Counted from the stretch's first letter, positions 5,430 through 48,154 are shown. The stretch is DNA of 64,000 nucleotides from Candidatus Deferrimicrobiaceae bacterium (GCA_963792415.1 CAWBVY010000006.1:576001-640000), one strand, 5' to 3'. Translations and numbers: made by a program. Notes: a model not told the origin generated them from the letters alone.

Positions 5430-7265
5430 ATGAGAGTGAAAACATGGACTTGCATTCTTCTTGTTCTAATAACCCTTGGCATATATTACCAGACCAGCAA
5501 TCATCATTTCATAAACTACGATGACCCTTCTTACATTATTGACAACCTGCATGTTAACACCGGATTAAACGCAAATAACATCGCTTGGGCGTTCACTTCC
5601 GTTCACTCCTCAAACTGGCATCCCGTAACCTGGCTATCGCATATGCTAGATGTACAATTATTCGGCCTCGCTCCAAAGGGCCACCACCTTGTTAATGTAA
5701 TGTTCCATCTTATCAACACCTTGCTATTGTATTTTCTGTTATTTGGAACTACCAAGTCGCACTGGAAAAGTTCCTTCGTTGCGGCGTTGTTCGCTCTTCA
5801 TCCACTCCATGTGGAGTCCGTTGCATGGGTCTCCGAGCGGAAAGACGTACTGAGCGCGTTTTTCTTCTTCATCACATTGATATTATATGTTTGGTACGTG
5901 AGGCGCCCCGTTTTCCGGAGGTACCTGCTTGCTTTATTCGCCTTCGCCCTTGGTCTCATGTCGAAACCCATGCTCGTTACACTCCCGTTTATTCTCTTGC
6001 TCATGGATTATTGGCCGTTACAGCGAATAACTCAATATGAGGGAATAGTTGATGCCAAAGGAAACAGTATCACGGAAAAGGAACAATCAACCCTCAGGCA
6101 ATTGATTCTCGAGAAATTCCCGTTTCTTGCTCTTTCCACCTTGTCCTGCATCATCACATTTTATGCTCAATCCAGAGGAGGAGCGGTAGCGAAAATAAAA
6201 TCAGTCCCGATAAGCTTCAGATTTTTAAACTCACTAGTCGCTTACGCAAATTACATATTCAAAACAATCTTGCCGCTTAAATTATCCGTAATCTATCCGT
6301 TACCCGATACCATAACAGTTTTACATGGGCTAGCGACCGGACTGCTCCTGACTGTCATTTCCACCATATCCATTCGAATGTGGCGGCGTCATCCATACTT
6401 TATTGTCGGGTGGCTTTGGTATATCGGGATGCTGGTTCCTGTAATCGGCTTGGTACAAGTAGGAAGACAATCCATGGCGGACCGGTACACGTATTTACCG
6501 CTCACAGGCCTGTTTATCATTGTCGCATGGGGCGTTCCATCAATCCTGAAAAATTGGCGTTACAGAAATACGCTTCTTTCCATTATGTCTGTGCTATTTC
6601 TGTTTACGTATTCACTATTAACCTGGTTTCAACTAGGATATTGGAAAAACAGCGTTACCCTCTTCCGGCATGCGACACAAGCAATTTCAAAAAACTATGT
6701 GGCTTACAATCTGCTTGGGAGTACTTATACCCAGTCAGACATGCTTGATGAAGCAATCTCCAATTACTTGGAGGCATTGCGTATATCTCCAGATGACGAA
6801 GAAGCCATTAGCGGGATAGGTATTGCCTTGGCGAAAAAAGGAGATCTCGAAAGAGCAACCTCGTATTTCAGGAAGGCAGCCTATCTGGAACCGGACTCGG
6901 CAGAGTGTCATTCCAACCTGGGATTCGCGTTATCGCAGCAGGGGCAATTTGAGGATGGAATTCGCCACTTGCTGGAAGCAGTAAGACTGCAACCCGGCAA
7001 CCCGAAAAATGCGGAGATACATTTCCACATAGGTACTTCCTTGGCAGCGCTGGGGGAAATCGATCCATCCATAGATCACTTCGTCAAGGCAATTCGGATA
7101 AAACCGGATTTCGTGGAGGCTCACTACAATTTGGGGGTTGCCCTGGCGAAGCAAGGGAGATGGGACCAGGCGATTGCCAGTTTTTCCATGGCACTTCAAT
7201 TGAAACCTGACCTGCAGGAGGCTTCCCTGTCCCTGGAGAAAGCAAAACGCATGAAGGGAAAATGA
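5430..7265 (+). CDS. Second TMTC-like GT-C/TPR protein; AT-richer and oppositely oriented
   Basis: Same motifs as 2579-4333 (YDD, NWHPVTWLSH, HPLHVESVAWVSERKD, MADRYTY) with a longer TPR array. Confidence 0.87.
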   Translation: MRVKTWTCILLVLITLGIYYQTSNHHFINYDDPSYIIDNLHVNTGLNANNIAWAFTSVHSSNWHPVTWLSHMLDVQLFGLAPKGHHLVNVMFHLINTLLLYFLLFGTTKSHWKSSFVAALFALHPLHVESVAWVSERKDVLSAFFFFITLILYVWYVRRPVFRRYLLALFAFALGLMSKPMLVTLPFILLLMDYWPLQRITQYEGIVDAKGNSITEKEQSTLRQLILEKFPFLALSTLSCIITFYAQSRGGAVAKIKSVPISFRFLNSLVAYANYIFKTILPLKLSVIYPLPDTITVLHGLATGLLLTVISTISIRMWRRHPYFIVGWLWYIGMLVPVIGLVQVGRQSMADRYTYLPLTGLFIIVAWGVPSILKNWRYRNTLLSIMSVLFLFTYSLLTWFQLGYWKNSVTLFRHATQAISKNYVAYNLLGSTYTQSDMLDEAISNYLEALRISPDDEEAISGIGIALAKKGDLERATSYFRKAAYLEPDSAECHSNLGFALSQQGQFEDGIRHLLEAVRLQPGNPKNAEIHFHIGTSLAALGEIDPSIDHFVKAIRIKPDFVEAHYNLGVALAKQGRWDQAIASFSMALQLKPDLQEASLSLEKAKRMKGK

Positions 7266-41598: not shown

Positions 41599-42576
41599 TC
41601 ACGCGGCCCCCCGCACGATGCCCACGCCCAGCGGGTCCGGCGGGTCGGCAGCGATCTTGCGGAACCCCGCCGACCGCATCATCCCGGCGATCTCCTTCGC
41701 CGTGTAGGCCCGTCCGCCCTCGGTCACCGCCACCATGTGGACGGAGAAGAAGGCCGGCCCCGGCGGGGACGTCTTCCCTTCCGCGAGCAGGAATTCCTGT
41801 ACGGCCGCCCGCCCCCCCGGCGCCAGGGCGGCGCGGGCCTTGCGCAGCAGCTTCCGGCAGTCGTCTTCGGGGAAGGCGTGCAGGATCTGGGAGATCCAGA
41901 TGAAGTCGTACGGTCCGCCGAGAGGGTCCTTGAGGAAATCCCCCTCCATCAGCCGGATCCGCGCCTCCACCCCCTTTTCCCGCAGGATCTTCCGGGCGAT
42001 CCGCAGCGTTCCCGGCGTGTCGAAGACGGCGATTTCCGCGCGGGGGTACGCCTGTGCCCACGCGACGGCGTAGGTGCCCGGCCCGCCCCCGAGGTCGAGG
42101 AGGCGGTCTCCGGCGTGGAGAGGAATCTTCCGGGCCACGGCCGCCGCCCGCTTCCGGGCGTTCTCCTCCATTCCCCGGATGAAGTTCTCCTGGTACCCGC
42201 CGTCCGCGCCACCGCCCTTTCCTTGCCCCGCCCGGATCGTGGCGGGAAGGCGACCCCATTCCCCCCACCCGTCGAGGTGGTGCAGGAGGATGGACTCCAT
42301 CGAACGCGGCCCCGGGAGCAGAACCTCCCGCGCCAACCGCGAGATCCCGTACCGGCGGCCGGCCTTGGAAAGCAGGCCGAGGACCACGAGGGCGTCGAGG
42401 AGGATGGAGAGCTTCCCGGGGTCGGCTCCGACCCGGCGCGCCAGCGCGGAGGCATCGCATTCCCCGGACGCAAGCCCCCGGAACACCCCGAGCTTCAGCG
42501 CGGCGAACAGGATCATCGCGCGCTGGTAGCCGTGCCCCAACGCCATCAGGTCGTCCATGTTCCGAACCGGTCTCAT
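41599..42576 (-). CDS. SAM-dependent O-methyltransferase (family 2, with dimerisation domain)
   Basis: LFAALKLGVF, LLDLGGGPG, GDFL, SQILH. Confidence 0.88.
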   Translation of the reverse strand: MRPVRNMDDLMALGHGYQRAMILFAALKLGVFRGLASGECDASALARRVGADPGKLSILLDALVVLGLLSKAGRRYGISRLAREVLLPGPRSMESILLHHLDGWGEWGRLPATIRAGQGKGGGADGGYQENFIRGMEENARKRAAAVARKIPLHAGDRLLDLGGGPGTYAVAWAQAYPRAEIAVFDTPGTLRIARKILREKGVEARIRLMEGDFLKDPLGGPYDFIWISQILHAFPEDDCRKLLRKARAALAPGGRAAVQEFLLAEGKTSPPGPAFFSVHMVAVTEGGRAYTAKEIAGMMRSAGFRKIAADPPDPLGVGIVRGAA

Positions 42577-42581
42577 CCGCG

Positions 42582-44066
42582 TCACCTCCTCCGGGCCTTC
42601 TCCATTTTCCGAAGGACCGCGGCTCCCCCCGCCGCGTCCACGACATCGTACCCCGCGGCGCGGATCTTTTCCCGCAGCGCATCCGCCGCCGGGTAGTCGC
42701 CCCCCCGCCTTCGGGACTCCCGTTCCCGCGCCATCGCCGCCACCTCGGCGGGGATCATCGAATCCTCCCCTTCGCCGACTCCGACCGTTTCGTTTTCGGC
42801 GTCGGCTTCGGAGAGCAGGCCCACGCAGAGGACCGCGTCCCACTCCGTGGCGAGCGCCCGGGCAGCCTCCCCTCCGATCCCCGACCGGAGAGCCTTGCGA
42901 ACGACGGCGAGGGCGCGCGGCATGTTCAGGTCGTCCGAGATCGCGTCGCGGAATTCCGTCCTCGATGCCGCCGCGGCGTCCTCTCCCGACGTCGCCTCCA
43001 GCGCCGCCCGACGGAAAGCCGCCCGCAGGCGGGAACGGGCGCGGGCCGCCGCGGCCTGGCCCTCCCAGGTGAAGTTCATCGGCGTCGCGTAGTGAAGGGT
43101 CATGCAGTAATACCGGAAATCGGCGGCGGAGAATCCCTTCCCTCCCCCGGGCGGACCGGTTTCCAGGTCGTCCAGGGTGTACTCGTTCCCCGCCGACTTG
43201 GACATCTTCTTCCCGTCGACCAGCAGGTGGGCCGCGTGCAGCCAATGGGCGGCGAACCGCTTCCCCGTGGCCACCGTCGCGAGGGCCCGGGAATTCTCGT
43301 GGTGCGGGAACCGGAGGTCGATCCCCCCCACGTGCAGGTCGAACTCGGGCCCGAGGTGCCGGATCGCCATCGCCGCGCACTCCGAGTGCCAGCCGGGCCA
43401 TCCCCTCCCCCAGGGGCTGTCCCACTGGAACTCCCGCCCCGGCTCGGCGGGCATCCAGAGGACAAAGTCCTCCGGCCTCCTTTTGTGGCGGTGGCCCCCC
43501 GGGTCCGTCCGTTCCGCGGGCGCCCCCTCCCCGAGGGCGGCCCCCGAGAGGGCCCCGTACCCCGGAACCTTCGACACGTCGAAGTAGAGGTACCCGCCTC
43601 CCCCGTAGACGGCCCCACGCTCCTCGAGCGCGCGCACGAGCGCGATCATCTCCGGGACGTGTTCCGAGGCCCGCGGGTAGGCGTCCGCCGGGAGGAACGC
43701 CATCCTGCGGCAATCCCTGAAGTAGGCCTCCGTGAAAAATGCGGCGATCTCCCGCGCCGACTTCCCGGCCGCGCGGGCGGCGGCGATCACCTTGTCTTCG
43801 CCCTCCTCCAATTGCTCCTGGTGCATGTGCCCCATGTCCGTGATGTTCTGGACCGCGAAGGTGCCGTACCCGAGGAAGCGCAGGGTGCGGACGAGAAGGT
43901 CGGTGAGGAGGTACGTGCGGAGGTTCCCGATGTGGGCGTACCGGTAGACGGTGGGGCCGCAGGTGTAGATGCGCACCCGCTCCGGGTCGGCGGGTGCGAA
44001 GGGCACGCTCCCCCGGGATGCGCTGTCGTGCAGGAAGAGGCGCGTCCCGTCGCGCGTGTGCACCAA
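42582..44066 (-). CDS. cysS: Cysteine--tRNA ligase, divergent
   Basis: CGPTVY, HIGN, WDSPWG.G.PGWHSEC, KMSKS, DDLN, ADALR. Confidence 0.88.
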   Translation of the reverse strand: MVHTRDGTRLFLHDSASRGSVPFAPADPERVRIYTCGPTVYRYAHIGNLRTYLLTDLLVRTLRFLGYGTFAVQNITDMGHMHQEQLEEGEDKVIAAARAAGKSAREIAAFFTEAYFRDCRRMAFLPADAYPRASEHVPEMIALVRALEERGAVYGGGGYLYFDVSKVPGYGALSGAALGEGAPAERTDPGGHRHKRRPEDFVLWMPAEPGREFQWDSPWGRGWPGWHSECAAMAIRHLGPEFDLHVGGIDLRFPHHENSRALATVATGKRFAAHWLHAAHLLVDGKKMSKSAGNEYTLDDLETGPPGGGKGFSAADFRYYCMTLHYATPMNFTWEGQAAAARARSRLRAAFRRAALEATSGEDAAAASRTEFRDAISDDLNMPRALAVVRKALRSGIGGEAARALATEWDAVLCVGLLSEADAENETVGVGEGEDSMIPAEVAAMARERESRRRGGDYPAADALREKIRAAGYDVVDAAGGAAVLRKMEKARRR

Positions 44067-44067
44067 G

Positions 44068-44265
44068 CTACATCTCCTGGTGCGATTCCTTCTCGATCTC
44101 ATCGGAGAGGAGTTTCACGTGCTTCTTCTCCTCTTCCGCGAGATACCGGAACAGCTCCCGTATCTCCGGCTGCGTGGCGATCCGCGCATATTCCGTGTAG
44201 TTCCGGTACGCGACCTTCTCGCGCTCCAGCGCCATCCGGATCACGTCCATCGGGTTTACGGGCAT
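44068..44265 (-). CDS. 65-aa half-ferritin/rubrerythrin-like protein
   Basis: ALEREKVAYRNY...LFRYLAEEEKKH. Confidence 0.8.
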   Translation of the reverse strand: MPVNPMDVIRMALEREKVAYRNYTEYARIATQPEIRELFRYLAEEEKKHVKLLSDEIEKESHQEM

Positions 44266-44334
44266 CTCGATACCTCCAGCGGGATGGAAGGTCCGGAGCG
44301 CCTCCGGGCGCGCCGGGCAACCGGGGGAATCCTT

Positions 44335-44718
44335 TCAGCCGGGGTGCTTCTTGTCGTAATCCGCGAGAGCGGACTTGACCGCCTCCTCCGCCATGACCGA
44401 GCAGTGGATCTTCACCGCCGGCAGCCCGTCGAGCGCGTCCGCGACGTGCTGGTTCGAGATCGCCCGCGCCTCTTCGAGGGTCTTCCCCTTGATCATCTCC
44501 GTCAGCATCGAGCTGGAGGCGATCGCCGCCCCGCACCCGAACGTCCGGAACTTCGCGTCGACGACCTTCCCCCCGTCGATCTTGAGGTAGAGGCGCATCA
44601 TGTCGCCGCACGCCGGGTTGCCGACCTCGCCGACGCCGTCGGCGCTCTCGATCTCCCCCACGTTCCGGGGATTCATGAAGTGGTCCATCACCTTTTCGCT
44701 ATAGGGTCCCGCCGCCAT
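44335..44718 (-). CDS. iscU: IscU/NifU-N Fe-S scaffold
   Basis: [33 protein letters not shown]. Confidence 0.94.
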
Positions 44719-44725
44719 GATCCGG

Positions 44726-45934
44726 TCATCCTCCTTTGATTTGCTGCTTCTGGTAGTCGAGATACGTCGGGGACATCTCCCTGAGCCGTTGCACGATGCC
44801 GGGCATCGCGTCGAGGGCCAGACGGACCTCGTCCGCGGTGTTCCCCTTCCCGAGACTGAAGGTGATCGACCCGGTGCAGATGTCGCTCGGCACGCCGATC
44901 GCCCGCAGGACGGGGGAAGCCACGAGATCCTCCTCGTCGTGCCCCCGGAGATTGGAACTGCACGCGGATCCGGACGCGGCCATCACCCCTTTCATGTTGA
45001 GGAACAGGAGGAGCGATTCCCCCTCGACATGCTCCACCCAGAAGGAGACGTGCCCGGGAAGACGCTCGGACGGGTGCCCGGTGTAGTGGAGCATCGGGAT
45101 CGCGGCCAGGCCGTCCCACAGGACCTTCCCCAGGCGGGAGAGATGCTCCGCCCACGCGCCCATCTCCCGACCCGCGAGGATCGCCGCCGCGCCCATCCCC
45201 ACCACGGCGGGGACATTTTCGGTCCCGGCCCGGTACCCCATCTCCTGGAACCCGCCGAACGTCCGTGGCGCCACCTTCGTCCCCTCGCGGAGGTAGAGCG
45301 CCCCGGCCCCTTTCGGTCCGTAGAAATTGTGCGCCGAGAGGGTGACGAGATCCGCGGGGATCTCCCGGACGTCCAGGGGGATGTGCCCCGCCGACGCGGT
45401 GGCGTCGACGTGGAACGTGACTCCCGCCTCCTTCGCGATCCGCCCGATCGGACCGACCGGCTCGATCGTTCCGATCTCGGAGTTGGCGTGCATCACCGAG
45501 ACGAGTGCCGTGTCGGCCCGAAGGGCCTTCCGGACGGCGTCGGGGTCGACCACGCCGTTCCGGTCCACGGGAAGAATGGTCACCTCGTACCCCGCGTTGC
45601 GCAGCGGAATCAACGCGTTCATCACGGAGAAGTGCTCGACGTCCGACACGACGACGTGCCGCTTCCGGGCGCCTGTCCCTTCCGCCGCGCCGAGGACGGC
45701 GAGGTTGTTCGACTCGGTGGCTCCCGAGGTGAAGACGATCTCTCCCGCCTTCGCCCCGATCAGCGCCGCGACCTCGCCCCTCGCCTGATCGACCGCCCGC
45801 AGCGCCGCCTGCCCCTGGTCATGGATGTGGGAGGACGGGTTCCCGTACCGATCGAGGAAGTACGGACGCATCGCCTCGAAGACGCGGGGGTCGAGGGGGG
45901 TGGTCGATATATGGTCGAAAAAGGCCTTGGTCAT
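44726..45934 (-). CDS. iscS: IscS/NifS-family protein with the PLP lysine replaced by Asn
   Basis: [36 protein letters not shown]. Confidence 0.88.
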
Positions 45935-45956
45935 CGGATCGTCCACCCTCCCCCGT

Positions 45957-46154
45957 TCACGGCGTGACGTTGAACTGCTCCATCTTTTCCCTGATGAGTT
46001 TCAGGTGGTTGCGCTCCTCGTCGGCAAGAAAGCGGAACATCGACTTCACGGCCGGGTTGGCCGCCTCGGCGGCGCTCTTCTCGTACTCCGCGAAGTTCTC
46101 CGCCTCCAGGCGGAGCGCCATCCGCAATGCCTCTTCCATGGACCAGTTCGCCAT
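45957..46154 (-). CDS. 65-aa half-ferritin/rubrerythrin-like protein
   Basis: ALRLEAENFAEY...MFRFLADEERNH; GGAGGAG SD. Confidence 0.8.
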   Translation of the reverse strand: MANWSMEEALRMALRLEAENFAEYEKSAAEAANPAVKSMFRFLADEERNHLKLIREKMEQFNVTP

Positions 46155-46352
46155 CACGCTCTCCTCCGACGGCACGTATCAATTTATGATTTACCCGGAG
46201 CGGATTCCGTTTCAAACGAATCCTCCCGGATCGCCATAATACCATGGAGGGGGACGGTGGTCGCCCGCCGATGGGCCGCATCGAGGCAGGCGGGCATCGG
46301 ATTTGCTATCATGTGCATCGAAGGTGGACAGATGCATCACGGGGGACATGGA

Positions 46353-46922
46353 ATGAAGTGGGGTACGTTGTCGCGCAGAGGGATCGGGGCGGTTCCGCTG
46401 ATCCTGGCGCTGGTCGTGGTGCTGGCGGGAGCCCTGCTTCTATACCGGAATTGGCAACAGGAACGAGGGTTTACGAAGGCAGAGTCGGGATCGGCGGCGG
46501 GGCTTCCCGGGTCCGGGACCGCCCCCCCGTTTTCCCTCAAGGACACGAACGGAAACATCTACTCCTCCGTCCAGCTCGCGGGGAAACCGGCGGCCATCAA
46601 CTTCTTCGCTACCTGGTGCCCCCCCTGCCGGGAGGAGATCCCCGGCTTCGTCGAGGTGTACAACAAGCACAAGGAGAAAGGGTTCGAGTTGATCGGCATC
46701 TCGCTCGATACCGACACGCGGGAAAATCTTCCGGGATTCCTGATGAGCAACAAGATCGGCTACAAGATCCTTTTCGGGGACCTGGCCACCGCCCGGGCGT
46801 ACGGCGGGGTCTCCGCCCTCCCGACCACCTTCTTCATTGGCAAGGACGGGGAGATCAAGAACGTGCACGTCGGCTACATGGACAAGGACGCGTTCGACGA
46901 GGAAGTCCGGAAACTTCTCTAA
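46353..46922 (+). CDS. Membrane-anchored TlpA/ResA thiol-disulfide oxidoreductase
   Basis: TM helix; NFFATWCPPC; LPTTF. Confidence 0.9.
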   Translation: MKWGTLSRRGIGAVPLILALVVVLAGALLLYRNWQQERGFTKAESGSAAGLPGSGTAPPFSLKDTNGNIYSSVQLAGKPAAINFFATWCPPCREEIPGFVEVYNKHKEKGFELIGISLDTDTRENLPGFLMSNKIGYKILFGDLATARAYGGVSALPTTFFIGKDGEIKNVHVGYMDKDAFDEEVRKLL

Positions 46923-47004
46923 AAAAGGGAAGGGGGCGAAAAGGTGTTCTTTCGCCCCCTCCGGCCGGCCGATGCCGGCAATTTTCGTCCCGGTGCCGTT
47001 CCCG

Positions 47005-47175
47005 TTACGCCGGGACGCACGCCGCGGTAGGGCACACCCCCGCGCACGCCGCGCAATCCGTGCAGGTGCTTGCGTCGATCGTGTAGATCGGGTCCCCCTC
47101 CGCGATGCACTGGACGGGGCATTCCGGTACGCACGCGCCGCAGGCGATGCACTCCTCCGTGATTTTGTACGCCAT
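47005..47175 (-). CDS. 2x[4Fe-4S] ferredoxin, 56 aa (not in the ORF track)
   Basis: MAYKITEECIACGACVPECPVQCIAEGDPIYTIDASTCTDCAACAGVCPTAACVPA; GGAGGAGG SD. Confidence 0.93.
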   Translation of the reverse strand: MAYKITEECIACGACVPECPVQCIAEGDPIYTIDASTCTDCAACAGVCPTAACVPA

Positions 47176-47515: not shown

Positions 47516-48154
47516 TCAATCCGCGGAAAGAAGGTCGAACCCCGATTTCCTGATCGCGGCCTTCACCACCTTGTAGTTCCTGGCCTCGATCCGAAGGACG
47601 AACACCTTGCGCCCCGGATCGTCGTGCGGCGAGGTGGCCACCGACACGATGTTCGCGTCGAAATCCTTCAGGAGTTTCAACACCTCGAAGAGCATCCCGG
47701 GCCTGTTCGCCAGCGCGACCTCGATCCGGTACCCCGGGCCGCTGACGCCCATCGCCTCGATGAAACTGTCGATGATGTCGGTTTCCGTGAGGATCCCGAC
47801 GAGCTTCCCGTCGTCCACGACGGGCAGGCAGCCGATCTTCTTCTCCCGGAGGATCAGGGCCGCCTCCTCGATCGGGGCCGTGGAGGAGACGGTGTACGGC
47901 CGCCGCGTCATGATCTGCTTCACCTTGACCTTGTCGAGAAGGTAGTAGATCTCCCGGATCTCGAGGGCGGTCGCCGGGGAAGGGGACGCCTGCTTGATGT
48001 CCCGCTCCGAGAGGATGCCGACGAGCCGTTCGCCGTCTTTCAGGACGGGGAGGTGACGGATCTCGTGTTCCTTCAGAAGGTCCATCGCCTTCTTCATCGA
48101 GTCCCCCTCGTCGACGACCACGGGGTTCCGCTTCATCCGCTTGGCGACGTTCAT
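47516..48154 (-). CDS. AcuB-like CBS-pair + ACT protein
   Basis: IRHLPV, GILSERDI, IGCLPV, NRPGML. Confidence 0.88.
   Translation of the reverse strand: MNVAKRMKRNPVVVDEGDSMKKAMDLLKEHEIRHLPVLKDGERLVGILSERDIKQASPSPATALEIREIYYLLDKVKVKQIMTRRPYTVSSTAPIEEAALILREKKIGCLPVVDDGKLVGILTETDIIDSFIEAMGVSGPGYRIEVALANRPGMLFEVLKLLKDFDANIVSVATSPHDDPGRKVFVLRIEARNYKVVKAAIRKSGFDLLSAD

Follow-up and report, generated by a model that had tools for sequence, protein, structure and literature searches.

The closest described relative of the system reported here is IscS of Archaeoglobus fulgidus. In the available parts of two reports, Asp replaces the Schiff-base Lys of this protein, which therefore has no desulfurase activity, and its Cys is a ligand to the [2Fe-2S] cluster on IscU; the same parts describe M. 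acetivorans IscS1 as another protein without the Lys (PMC7585200, PMC13066941). The Lys-less IscS proteins known so far comprise these two, one a solved archaeal protein and the other a methanogen paralogue. We analysed a 64,000-nt stretch of DNA, hereafter the window, from a Candidatus Deferrimicrobiaceae bacterium (GCA_963792415.1 CAWBVY010000006.1:576001-640000), in which six closely packed genes occupy 41599-46175 on the minus strand. One of them encodes IscS(N), an IscS homologue with Asn at the Schiff-base position; it adjoins iscU, and the pair is bracketed by genes for two half-ferritins, hFtn1 and hFtn2. In this bacterial lineage, the Lys-less IscS is the fixed partner of the sole IscU found. 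The lineage is described in the accessible part of PMC9386147; the source record names it Candidatus Deferrimicrobiaceae, and the phylum name in the Atlas is Candidatus Deferrimicrobiota.

Results

IscS(N) lacks three catalytic residues of type I desulfurases

IscS(N) is encoded at 44726-45934 on the minus strand and matches PF00266 with an expectation value (E) of 8e-77. The open reading frame (ORF) extends from a GTG at 45946; the ATG at 45934 yields 402 residues, the commonest length in the nearest homologues. Around the position of the Lys that forms the Schiff base with pyridoxal 5'-phosphate (PLP), Lys206 in E. coli IscS, the minus-strand codons are ctc tcg gcg cac AAT ttc tac gga ccg aaa ggg, which translate to 11 residues with Asn (45326-45328) at the Lys site. 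According to sequence alignment, two further catalytic residues are replaced: the PLP-binding Gln183 by Ala (GCG, 45395-45397) and the active-site Arg354 by Thr (ACC, 44861-44863). By contrast, the mobile-loop Cys equivalent to Cys328 is retained (TGC, 44960-44962) in an SGSAC motif, as it was in 145/145 of the Lys-less sequences aligned. It is followed by a seven-residue acidic insert, RGHDEED (44927-44947), which lengthens the Cys loop and which is absent from both the closest solved structure, 9wep, and the Lys-bearing paralogue of the same genome. In 9wep, the residue aligned to the Asn is the Lys of AHKMYGPKG. The initial annotation, made from the DNA alone, had pointed to the Asn codon, the retained Cys and the acidic stretch; all three were confirmed, and the losses at the Gln183 and Arg354 sites add to them.

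We searched 40 relatives and recovered 30 loci. At the 28 orthologous loci of 62-100% identity, from the genome itself, 20 genomes of the genus and seven of a sister family, the residue was Asn (AHN) without exception, and the core of the insert, DE[ED][DE]L, was likewise kept at 28/28. The two remoter loci (47% and 43% identity) also lacked the Lys. Among the 120 nearest metagenomic proteins clustered at 90% identity (72-95% identical to IscS(N)), 117 had Asn, three had His and none had Lys. The Asn is thus not a sequencing slip, a source of the substitution that the orthologues ruled out. In addition, a 284-base contig from an RNA library (X17 record 30, 45099-45382) covers the Asn codon and is identical to the window. 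The three proteins with His (P0081, P0093 and P0111; AHHFYGPKG) are close relatives, 73-75% identical.

We then compared the 120 close proteins with the representatives of the 150 nearest clusters at 50% identity, of which 125 bear the Lys and 25 lack it. Gln183 was kept in 120/125 of the Lys-bearing representatives versus 2/25 of the Lys-less ones, and Arg354 in 124/125 versus 5/25. In the close group (n = 120), Ala occupied the Gln183 site in 116 proteins and Thr the Arg354 site in all 120. His104, Asn155, Asp180, Ser203, His205 and Thr243 were still conserved in the Asn clade. In the available portion of a study of E. coli IscS, Gln183 bonds the O3' of PLP, and the K206A and Q183E substitutions each abolished desulfurase activity, the K206A variant still binding some PLP (PMC9978102).

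The predicted structure of IscS(N) had a mean predicted local distance difference test (pLDDT) score of 93.1, with a disordered Cys loop (residues 327-336, pLDDT <50). According to Foldseek, the model superimposed on NFS1 with a template modelling (TM) score of 0.93 and on E. coli IscS with scores of 0.91-0.95. IscS(N) fell below the NCBIfam equivalog cut-offs (TIGR03402, 421 versus 530.75 bits; IscS, 346 versus 643 bits). Among the features that mark an active type I desulfurase, it has the fold and the loop Cys and lacks Lys206, Gln183 and Arg354. Together, these data identify IscS(N) as a full-length homologue of type I desulfurases that is clearly constrained and that has lost these three residues and retained the loop Cys.

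Relationship of IscS(N) to other Lys-less proteins

The parallel with A. fulgidus IscS, drawn in the initial annotation, holds in sequence, fold and gene position. The A. fulgidus chain (4eb5, 4eb7, 4hvk) carries SSNDIYGPKG, DATAS and LLLTLG, the same three losses as IscS(N), at Lys206, Gln183 (in the same DATAS motif) and Arg354, together with the loop Cys. It has the type I fold, with TM scores of 0.89-0.97 between 4hvk/4eb5 and the IscS(N) model at 42-44% identity, and its gene adjoins that of IscU. IscS(N) therefore combines the three traits of the A. fulgidus type: no Lys, a loop Cys and an adjacent iscU.

In a FastTree phylogeny of 146 rows, Lys-less rows made up 22 of the 24 in the starred clade that contained IscS(N), and seven of the eight in a neighbouring starred clade that contained the sequence nearest to A. 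fulgidus IscS. We also ran IQ-TREE in "quick" mode on 65 rows, namely the 30 Lys-less rows of the first tree and 35 of its 116 Lys-bearing rows. A single clade of 29 Lys-less rows, a group named after the tree had been inspected and from which the isolated P0186 was left out, was not rejected by the approximately unbiased (AU) test (p-AU 0.43).

A profile built from Lys-less sequences returned 119 new best matches, 58 of which lacked the Lys; all 58 kept the Cys and all 58 were without the Arg. The named Lys-less matches came from Archaeoglobaceae, Candidatus Schekmanbacteria, Nitrospirota (two) and one subsurface metagenome, and were labelled "cysteine desulfurase". Lys-less proteins made up 25/150 of the nearest 50%-cluster representatives, and the replacements of the lost residues across the group are diverse (Q, R, T, S, L, N, D, G, P, M, H and A). 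The tree and these counts indicate that the Lys-less state is widespread, occurs in Bacteria as well and goes unmarked in annotation. As judged from sequence, IscS(N) is part of a Lys-less group of IscS/NifS homologues that is large and, for the most part, unannotated; its characterized relative is A. fulgidus IscS. In the literature covered, which excludes most subscription journals, we found no report of half-ferritins in an isc operon or of a bacterial Lys-less IscS.

A conserved four-gene cassette

The labels that the initial annotation gave to the six genes were all backed by Pfam and NCBIfam. Downstream of hFtn1 and iscS(N), the operon comprises iscU, hFtn2, a gene for a second cysteinyl-tRNA synthetase (CysRS2) and one for an O-methyltransferase. 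IscU is a MisU-like scaffold of 127 residues (44335-44718, minus strand; PF01592, E 6e-53; TIGR03419, 208.5 bits, above the cut-off of 187.9). The gaps between genes measure 22 bases (hFtn1 to iscS(N)), 7 (iscS(N) to iscU), 69 (iscU to hFtn2) and 5 (CysRS2 to methyltransferase), and the four genes from hFtn1 to hFtn2 span ~2.1 kb. A promoter-like site (TTGAAA, 18 nt, AATCAT; 46186-46215, minus strand), identified as a consensus match only, lies directly 5' of hFtn1 in a divergent intergenic region. Two such sites occurred in 6.3 kb, both in this region, compared with a mean of 0.6 in shuffled sequences. Most of the operon was spanned by contigs of three RNA libraries.

Gene order was examined at the loci of 15 relatives from five genera, drawn from the family of the source genome (f1) and a sister family (f2). 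hFtn1 and IscU flanked IscS(N) at 15/15 loci, and hFtn2 followed IscU at all 13 loci at which the contig continued. CysRS2 came after hFtn2 at 11 of these 13, and the methyltransferase was present at five, all in f1. The conserved core is hFtn1-IscS(N)-IscU-hFtn2, with CysRS2 and the methyltransferase as accessory genes; of the layout first annotated, the survey upheld the core as fixed and reduced the other two genes to accessories. Three genomes of the genus (72-97% complete) had no detected IscS(N), and IscU was not found in them either.

At 4/15 loci, an extra gene of ~153-158 codons lies between iscU and hFtn2 (L059:5856-6332, minus; L055:8602-9078, plus; L056:5317-5793, minus; L075:7693-8154, plus). 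Its product resembles a ferritin of full length and has two E...ExxH repeats, so these four cassettes contain three ferritin-like genes; the window has the 69-base gap at this place.

hFtn1 and hFtn2 each encode half of a di-iron site

hFtn1 (45957-46154, minus strand; PF02915, E 8.7e-07, covering profile positions 1-58 of 137) and hFtn2 (44068-44265, minus strand; PF02915, E 4.6e-09) are 65-residue half-ferritins, each consisting of one helix pair. The hFtn1 ORF begins at a GTG at 46175; the Met at 46154 is invariant among orthologues and is preceded by a GGAGGAG site. Both proteins are acidic, with isoelectric points of 5.1 and 5.4. They are 31% identical to each other and share invariant E24, Y31, E53, E54 and H57 (hFtn1 numbering). 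The best matches of the hFtn profile among solved structures were to M. xanthus EncB (7s5k and 7s5c, E 5.8e-09). Other matches were to symerythrin, sulerythrin, rubrerythrins, an encapsulated ferritin of Pyrococcus and the designed "due ferri" helix-pair dimers. hFtn1 and hFtn2 thus each encode half of a di-iron site of the EncB/EncFtn type, always together with IscS(N)-IscU.

We modelled hFtn1 and hFtn2 as a two-chain complex. The ipSAE score was 0.81 versus 0.14 for the best control, passing a mark reached by 116/157 solved complexes and 2/215 mismatched pairs. The runs shared at least 90% of contacts, the pLDDT of the partner was at least 86, and the predicted interface holds E24, Y31, E53 and H57 of one chain together with E16, Y23, E45 and H49 of the other. 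The modelling supports an hFtn1:hFtn2 heterodimer as a prediction and does not demonstrate binding.

Of the features of encapsulin-associated ferritins, the half-ferritins have the helix pair and the E...ExxH motif, with the dimer modelled, and lack a shell gene and a targeting peptide. No encapsulin shell of family PF04454, the only encapsulin family searched for, was found in the genome, and we rejected a role as encapsulin cargo on this ground.

Matches to the half-ferritins at E 1e-20 or better occurred in 9 of 301 sampled genomes of the phylum, all from f1 and f2. A word-based search with hFtn2 returned 80 proteins, the named ones from uncultured "Deltaproteobacteria", a result that does not prove the family to be narrow, and the Atlas contains similar clusters of 65-66 residues in Thermodesulfobacteriota. 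A further family, f38, has one hFtn-like gene, immediately downstream of a gene for a CBS-domain protein (L068:5725-5931 and 5950-6570; also L070 and L072). On its 3' side are two small ORFs of unknown function, a gene for a 4Fe-4S ferredoxin-domain protein and one for an aldehyde:ferredoxin oxidoreductase (AOR).

Fe-S assembly and sulfur supply in the genome

The genome is rated 100% complete, and our searches covered all of it but 72,000 bases of the contig carrying the operon. Within this scope, the only NifU_N match was the IscU of the operon, and there were no matches to SufBD, an A-type carrier, HscB or CyaY. No siroheme sulfite-reductase domain was found either. A Lys-bearing IscS that shares 45% identity with IscS(N) is encoded elsewhere (G000:C6:31309-36000, L003) in the order cysE, Rrf2-family regulator, iscS, mnmA and a UPF0004 gene (methylthiotransferase N-terminal domain). 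Two more class V proteins of the genome also carry the Lys.

The initial annotation had proposed a minimal system using environmental sulfide with its own iron-binding partners. The system is indeed minimal in the searched genome, and the partners are true E...ExxH di-iron halves for which a role with iron is plausible. The use of sulfide, however, was not established: the Lys-bearing IscS could supply persulfide.

Some members of the genus have a further class V gene, ~30% identical. Beside it, in G015, is a weak, SufU-like NifU_N match (L077, G015:C109:11081-11437 and G015:C109:11575-12606); the window's genome has no second NifU_N match.

CysRS2, the methyltransferase and neighbouring genes

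CysRS2 (42582 to ~44066, minus strand; TIGR00435, 358 bits, above the cut-off of 340) is divergent, as initially annotated: the canonical CysRS is encoded on another contig and is 37% identical over 385 residues. Both copies were present in 5/5 relatives checked. CysRS2 keeps the HIGH (as HIGN) and KMSKS motifs, the Cys/Cys/His residues that presumably ligate Zn, and the C-terminal domain. HHENE has become HHENS in this genus, a change from Glu to Ser at the fourth residue of the Zn site, which we take to be a Zn ligand in E. coli CysRS; the sister family has HHENE. In family score, HIGH, KMSKS and Zn-site residues, CysRS2 conforms to a cysteine-tRNA ligase, and its sequence suggests a second CysRS that is probably ordinary and active. 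The Met start of CysRS2 in relatives is ACG (Thr) in the window (44045-44047), so translation must begin at TTG 44066 or GTG 44063, the likely starts and immediately behind the hFtn2 stop codon, or at ATG 44102 within hFtn2, the first codon of the ORF.

The last gene of the operon (41599-42576, minus strand) encodes a family-2 O-methyltransferase with a dimerization domain (PF00891, E 2e-30; PF08100, E 8e-13). It has no close characterized relative; the best NCBIfam match, to BchU, scored 62 bits, where the cut-off is 276. In RNA library X15, one contig runs from 42589 straight to 44067, omitting CysRS2 exactly, and at locus L074 the methyltransferase likewise follows hFtn2 directly. Together, these orders indicate that CysRS2 is an optional insert in natural populations.

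The two genes had been read initially as signs of a wider sulfur/selenium-handling unit. That reading did not survive the survey: CysRS2 is missing from two of 13 loci and skipped exactly in the variant, the methyltransferase occurs in one family, and the CysRS2 motifs are normal. Nothing that we saw pointed to selenium, although no selenium gene was searched for. A role of CysRS2 as a cysteine-persulfide synthase, by analogy with work on CARS2, is speculation for a gene that is optional and looks ordinary.

The upstream neighbours of the operon are also conserved: a divergent TlpA-like gene at 15/15 loci, Nfu at 15/15, ferredoxin at 12/15 and a CBS-ACT gene at 14/15. The TlpA-like gene (46353-46922, plus strand) encodes a membrane-anchored thioredoxin-like protein with a WCPPC motif, read from the translation. 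Ferredoxin (47005-47175), Nfu (PF01106; 47204-47422) and CBS-ACT (47516-48154) form a minus-strand operon whose layout is conserved in both families and which ends at a terminator-like site (46929-46962). The CBS-ACT gene lies just upstream of Nfu and ferredoxin, and may be compared with the CBS gene of f38.

Discussion

We consider it probable, on balance, that the operon is a housekeeping Fe-S cluster assembly operon built on a desulfurase-dead IscS, with sulfur coming from sulfide or from the Lys-bearing IscS and with the half-ferritins handling iron. In this model, IscS(N) would be unable to cleave cysteine, by analogy with A. fulgidus IscS. It would dock on IscU as an (IscS-IscU)2 complex, and its loop Cys would both ligate the nascent [2Fe-2S] cluster and take part in its assembly. 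Sulfur would come from elsewhere, either as free sulfide or as persulfide made by the Lys-bearing IscS that the cysE-rrf2-iscS-mnmA operon encodes. The half-ferritins are predicted to pair, probably as hFtn1:hFtn2, into a four-helix di-iron unit that might donate or buffer iron for the scaffold. The acidic insert in the Cys loop may belong to a contact with iron or with a partner protein, and CysRS2 and the O-methyltransferase would be co-transcribed passengers outside the core.

What donates iron in IscU-type systems is still under dispute, and two tightly linked di-iron mini-proteins are therefore a concrete, testable candidate. A bolder version of the model, which we put forward tentatively and regard as rather doubtful, holds that the only Fe-S machine of Deferrimicrobia is desulfurase-free: the lengthened, acidic Cys loop of the dead IscS would hold the nascent cluster on IscU, sulfide would feed it and hFtn1:hFtn2 would be the physiological iron donor. 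If this were true, the long-open question of what delivers iron to IscU would have a natural answer in the genetically linked half-ferritin pair. Moreover, a Lys-less IscS would mark a widespread, sulfide-fed Fe-S biogenesis hidden under "cysteine desulfurase" labels in Bacteria and Archaea.

Several observations weigh against the proposed model. His104, Asp180, Ser203, His205 and Thr243 of the PLP site persist in the Asn clade and, in the part of the E. coli study available, K206A still binds PLP; non-covalent PLP, with residual or different chemistry, is therefore possible (PMC9978102). The presence of the Lys-bearing IscS makes sulfide a possible sulfur source and not a forced one, and instead of serving purely as a ligand, IscS(N) could relay persulfide. 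In phylogenetic terms, IscS(N) and the A. fulgidus-like sequence are in different starred clades, and the group submitted to the AU test was framed only after the tree was seen. Nothing in the data shows that the half-ferritins touch IscS(N) or IscU. The pass of the modelled heterodimer may reflect only its likeness to the solved EncFtn, EncB and DF1 dimers, and the related half-ferritins of f38 stand in a different context (CBS-hFtn-ferredoxin-AOR). Finally, contigs from RNA libraries are no proof of transcription, and every genome-level absence applies to the searched part, outside which 72,000 bases lie.

Of the alternative roles for the half-ferritins, protection is a serious contender, if clearly a less probable one than the handling of iron for the scaffold. 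As a mini-rubrerythrin or ferroxidase, they would clear O2 or H2O2, or oxidize stray Fe2+, near an oxygen-sensitive assembly complex and would not donate iron. In di-iron carboxylate sites, iron usually serves as a cofactor, which fits such a role, as do the best Pfam family, Rubrerythrin, the profile matches to rubrerythrins, sulerythrin and symerythrin, and the full-length two-repeat ferritin-like gene at 4/15 loci. Nevertheless, the half-ferritins contain no rubredoxin or other electron-entry domain, their nearest solved relatives are of the iron-transit EncB/EncFtn type, and a general stress protein would have no need of strict pairing with IscS(N)-IscU.

Other explanations concern IscS(N) itself. 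As a persulfide relay, its loop Cys would take S0 from the Lys-bearing IscS or another donor and pass it to IscU, as SufE or SufU does for SufS, and cysteine would remain the sulfur source. The genome does encode a Lys-bearing IscS, and most relatives searched have a second match of 42-47% identity, counted irrespective of the residue at the Lys site; in addition, the loop Cys is invariant, the loop is lengthened and nothing else that might accept sulfur was seen next to IscU. We nevertheless judge a relay unlikely: we know of no case of one IscS loading another, the company of the Lys-bearing copy, mnmA and a methylthiotransferase-like gene, suits tRNA thiolation, and the precedent of A. fulgidus, in the part of the report available, is a ligand role with sulfide (PMC7585200). 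A much smaller likelihood attaches to PLP chemistry with non-covalently bound cofactor, with IscS(N) acting, for instance, as a slow lyase of cysteine or selenocysteine, or regulating IscU in response to PLP or cysteine. The five other conserved residues of the PLP pocket and the PLP retained by K206A agree with such chemistry (PMC9978102). It is opposed by the joint loss of Lys206, Gln183 and Arg354, with many different replacements, across a diverse Lys-less group and, in the accessible parts of the respective studies, by the inactivity of E. coli K206A and Q183E (PMC9978102) and the lack of desulfurase activity in A. fulgidus IscS (PMC7585200). That IscS(N) is a functionless, decaying duplicate is scarcely credible, even with its catalytic residues gone. 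The reading frame is intact at 62-97% identity in two families, the loop Cys and insert are conserved, synteny with the only IscU is fixed and the gene is present in RNA-library contigs; we rejected a pseudogene on the strength of this conservation.

The Lys-less state is common in the nearest relatives of IscS(N), which are routinely annotated as active desulfurases.

Comparison with described systems

Small, acidic, iron-binding modulators of IscS-IscU are represented by IscX and CyaY/frataxin. The half-ferritins are likewise small, acidic and encoded in an Fe-S operon, and the analogy is one of role, the fold being unrelated. In EncB/EncFtn proteins (M. xanthus EncB, 7s5k and 7s5c; Pyrococcus, 5n5e), as in the half-ferritins, a single helix pair carries E...ExxH, and the models suggest that the metal site of the half-ferritins is likewise completed across the dimer interface. 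By contrast, the half-ferritins have only 65 residues and end directly past the second helix, they score far below the NCBIfam EncB cut-offs (26-34 bits against 90-210), and two distinct paralogues bracket Fe-S assembly genes.

The MIS system, MisS-MisU, is, as far as the available parts of the sources describe it (Garcia et al.; PMC13066941, PMC12442378), a pair of IscS-like and IscU-like proteins. The searched genome likewise has an IscS-like and an IscU-like protein with no HscAB chaperone, A-type carrier or frataxin found. However, MisS is described there as a cysteine desulfurase, whereas IscS(N) lacks the Lys, and the two half-ferritin genes lie outside MIS as described in these parts. 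The A. fulgidus IscS differs from IscS(N) in having Asp and not Asn at the Lys site and in lacking the seven-residue acidic insert past the Cys. IscS(N), for its part, has a bacterial host, two flanking half-ferritins and a Lys-bearing IscS in the same genome.

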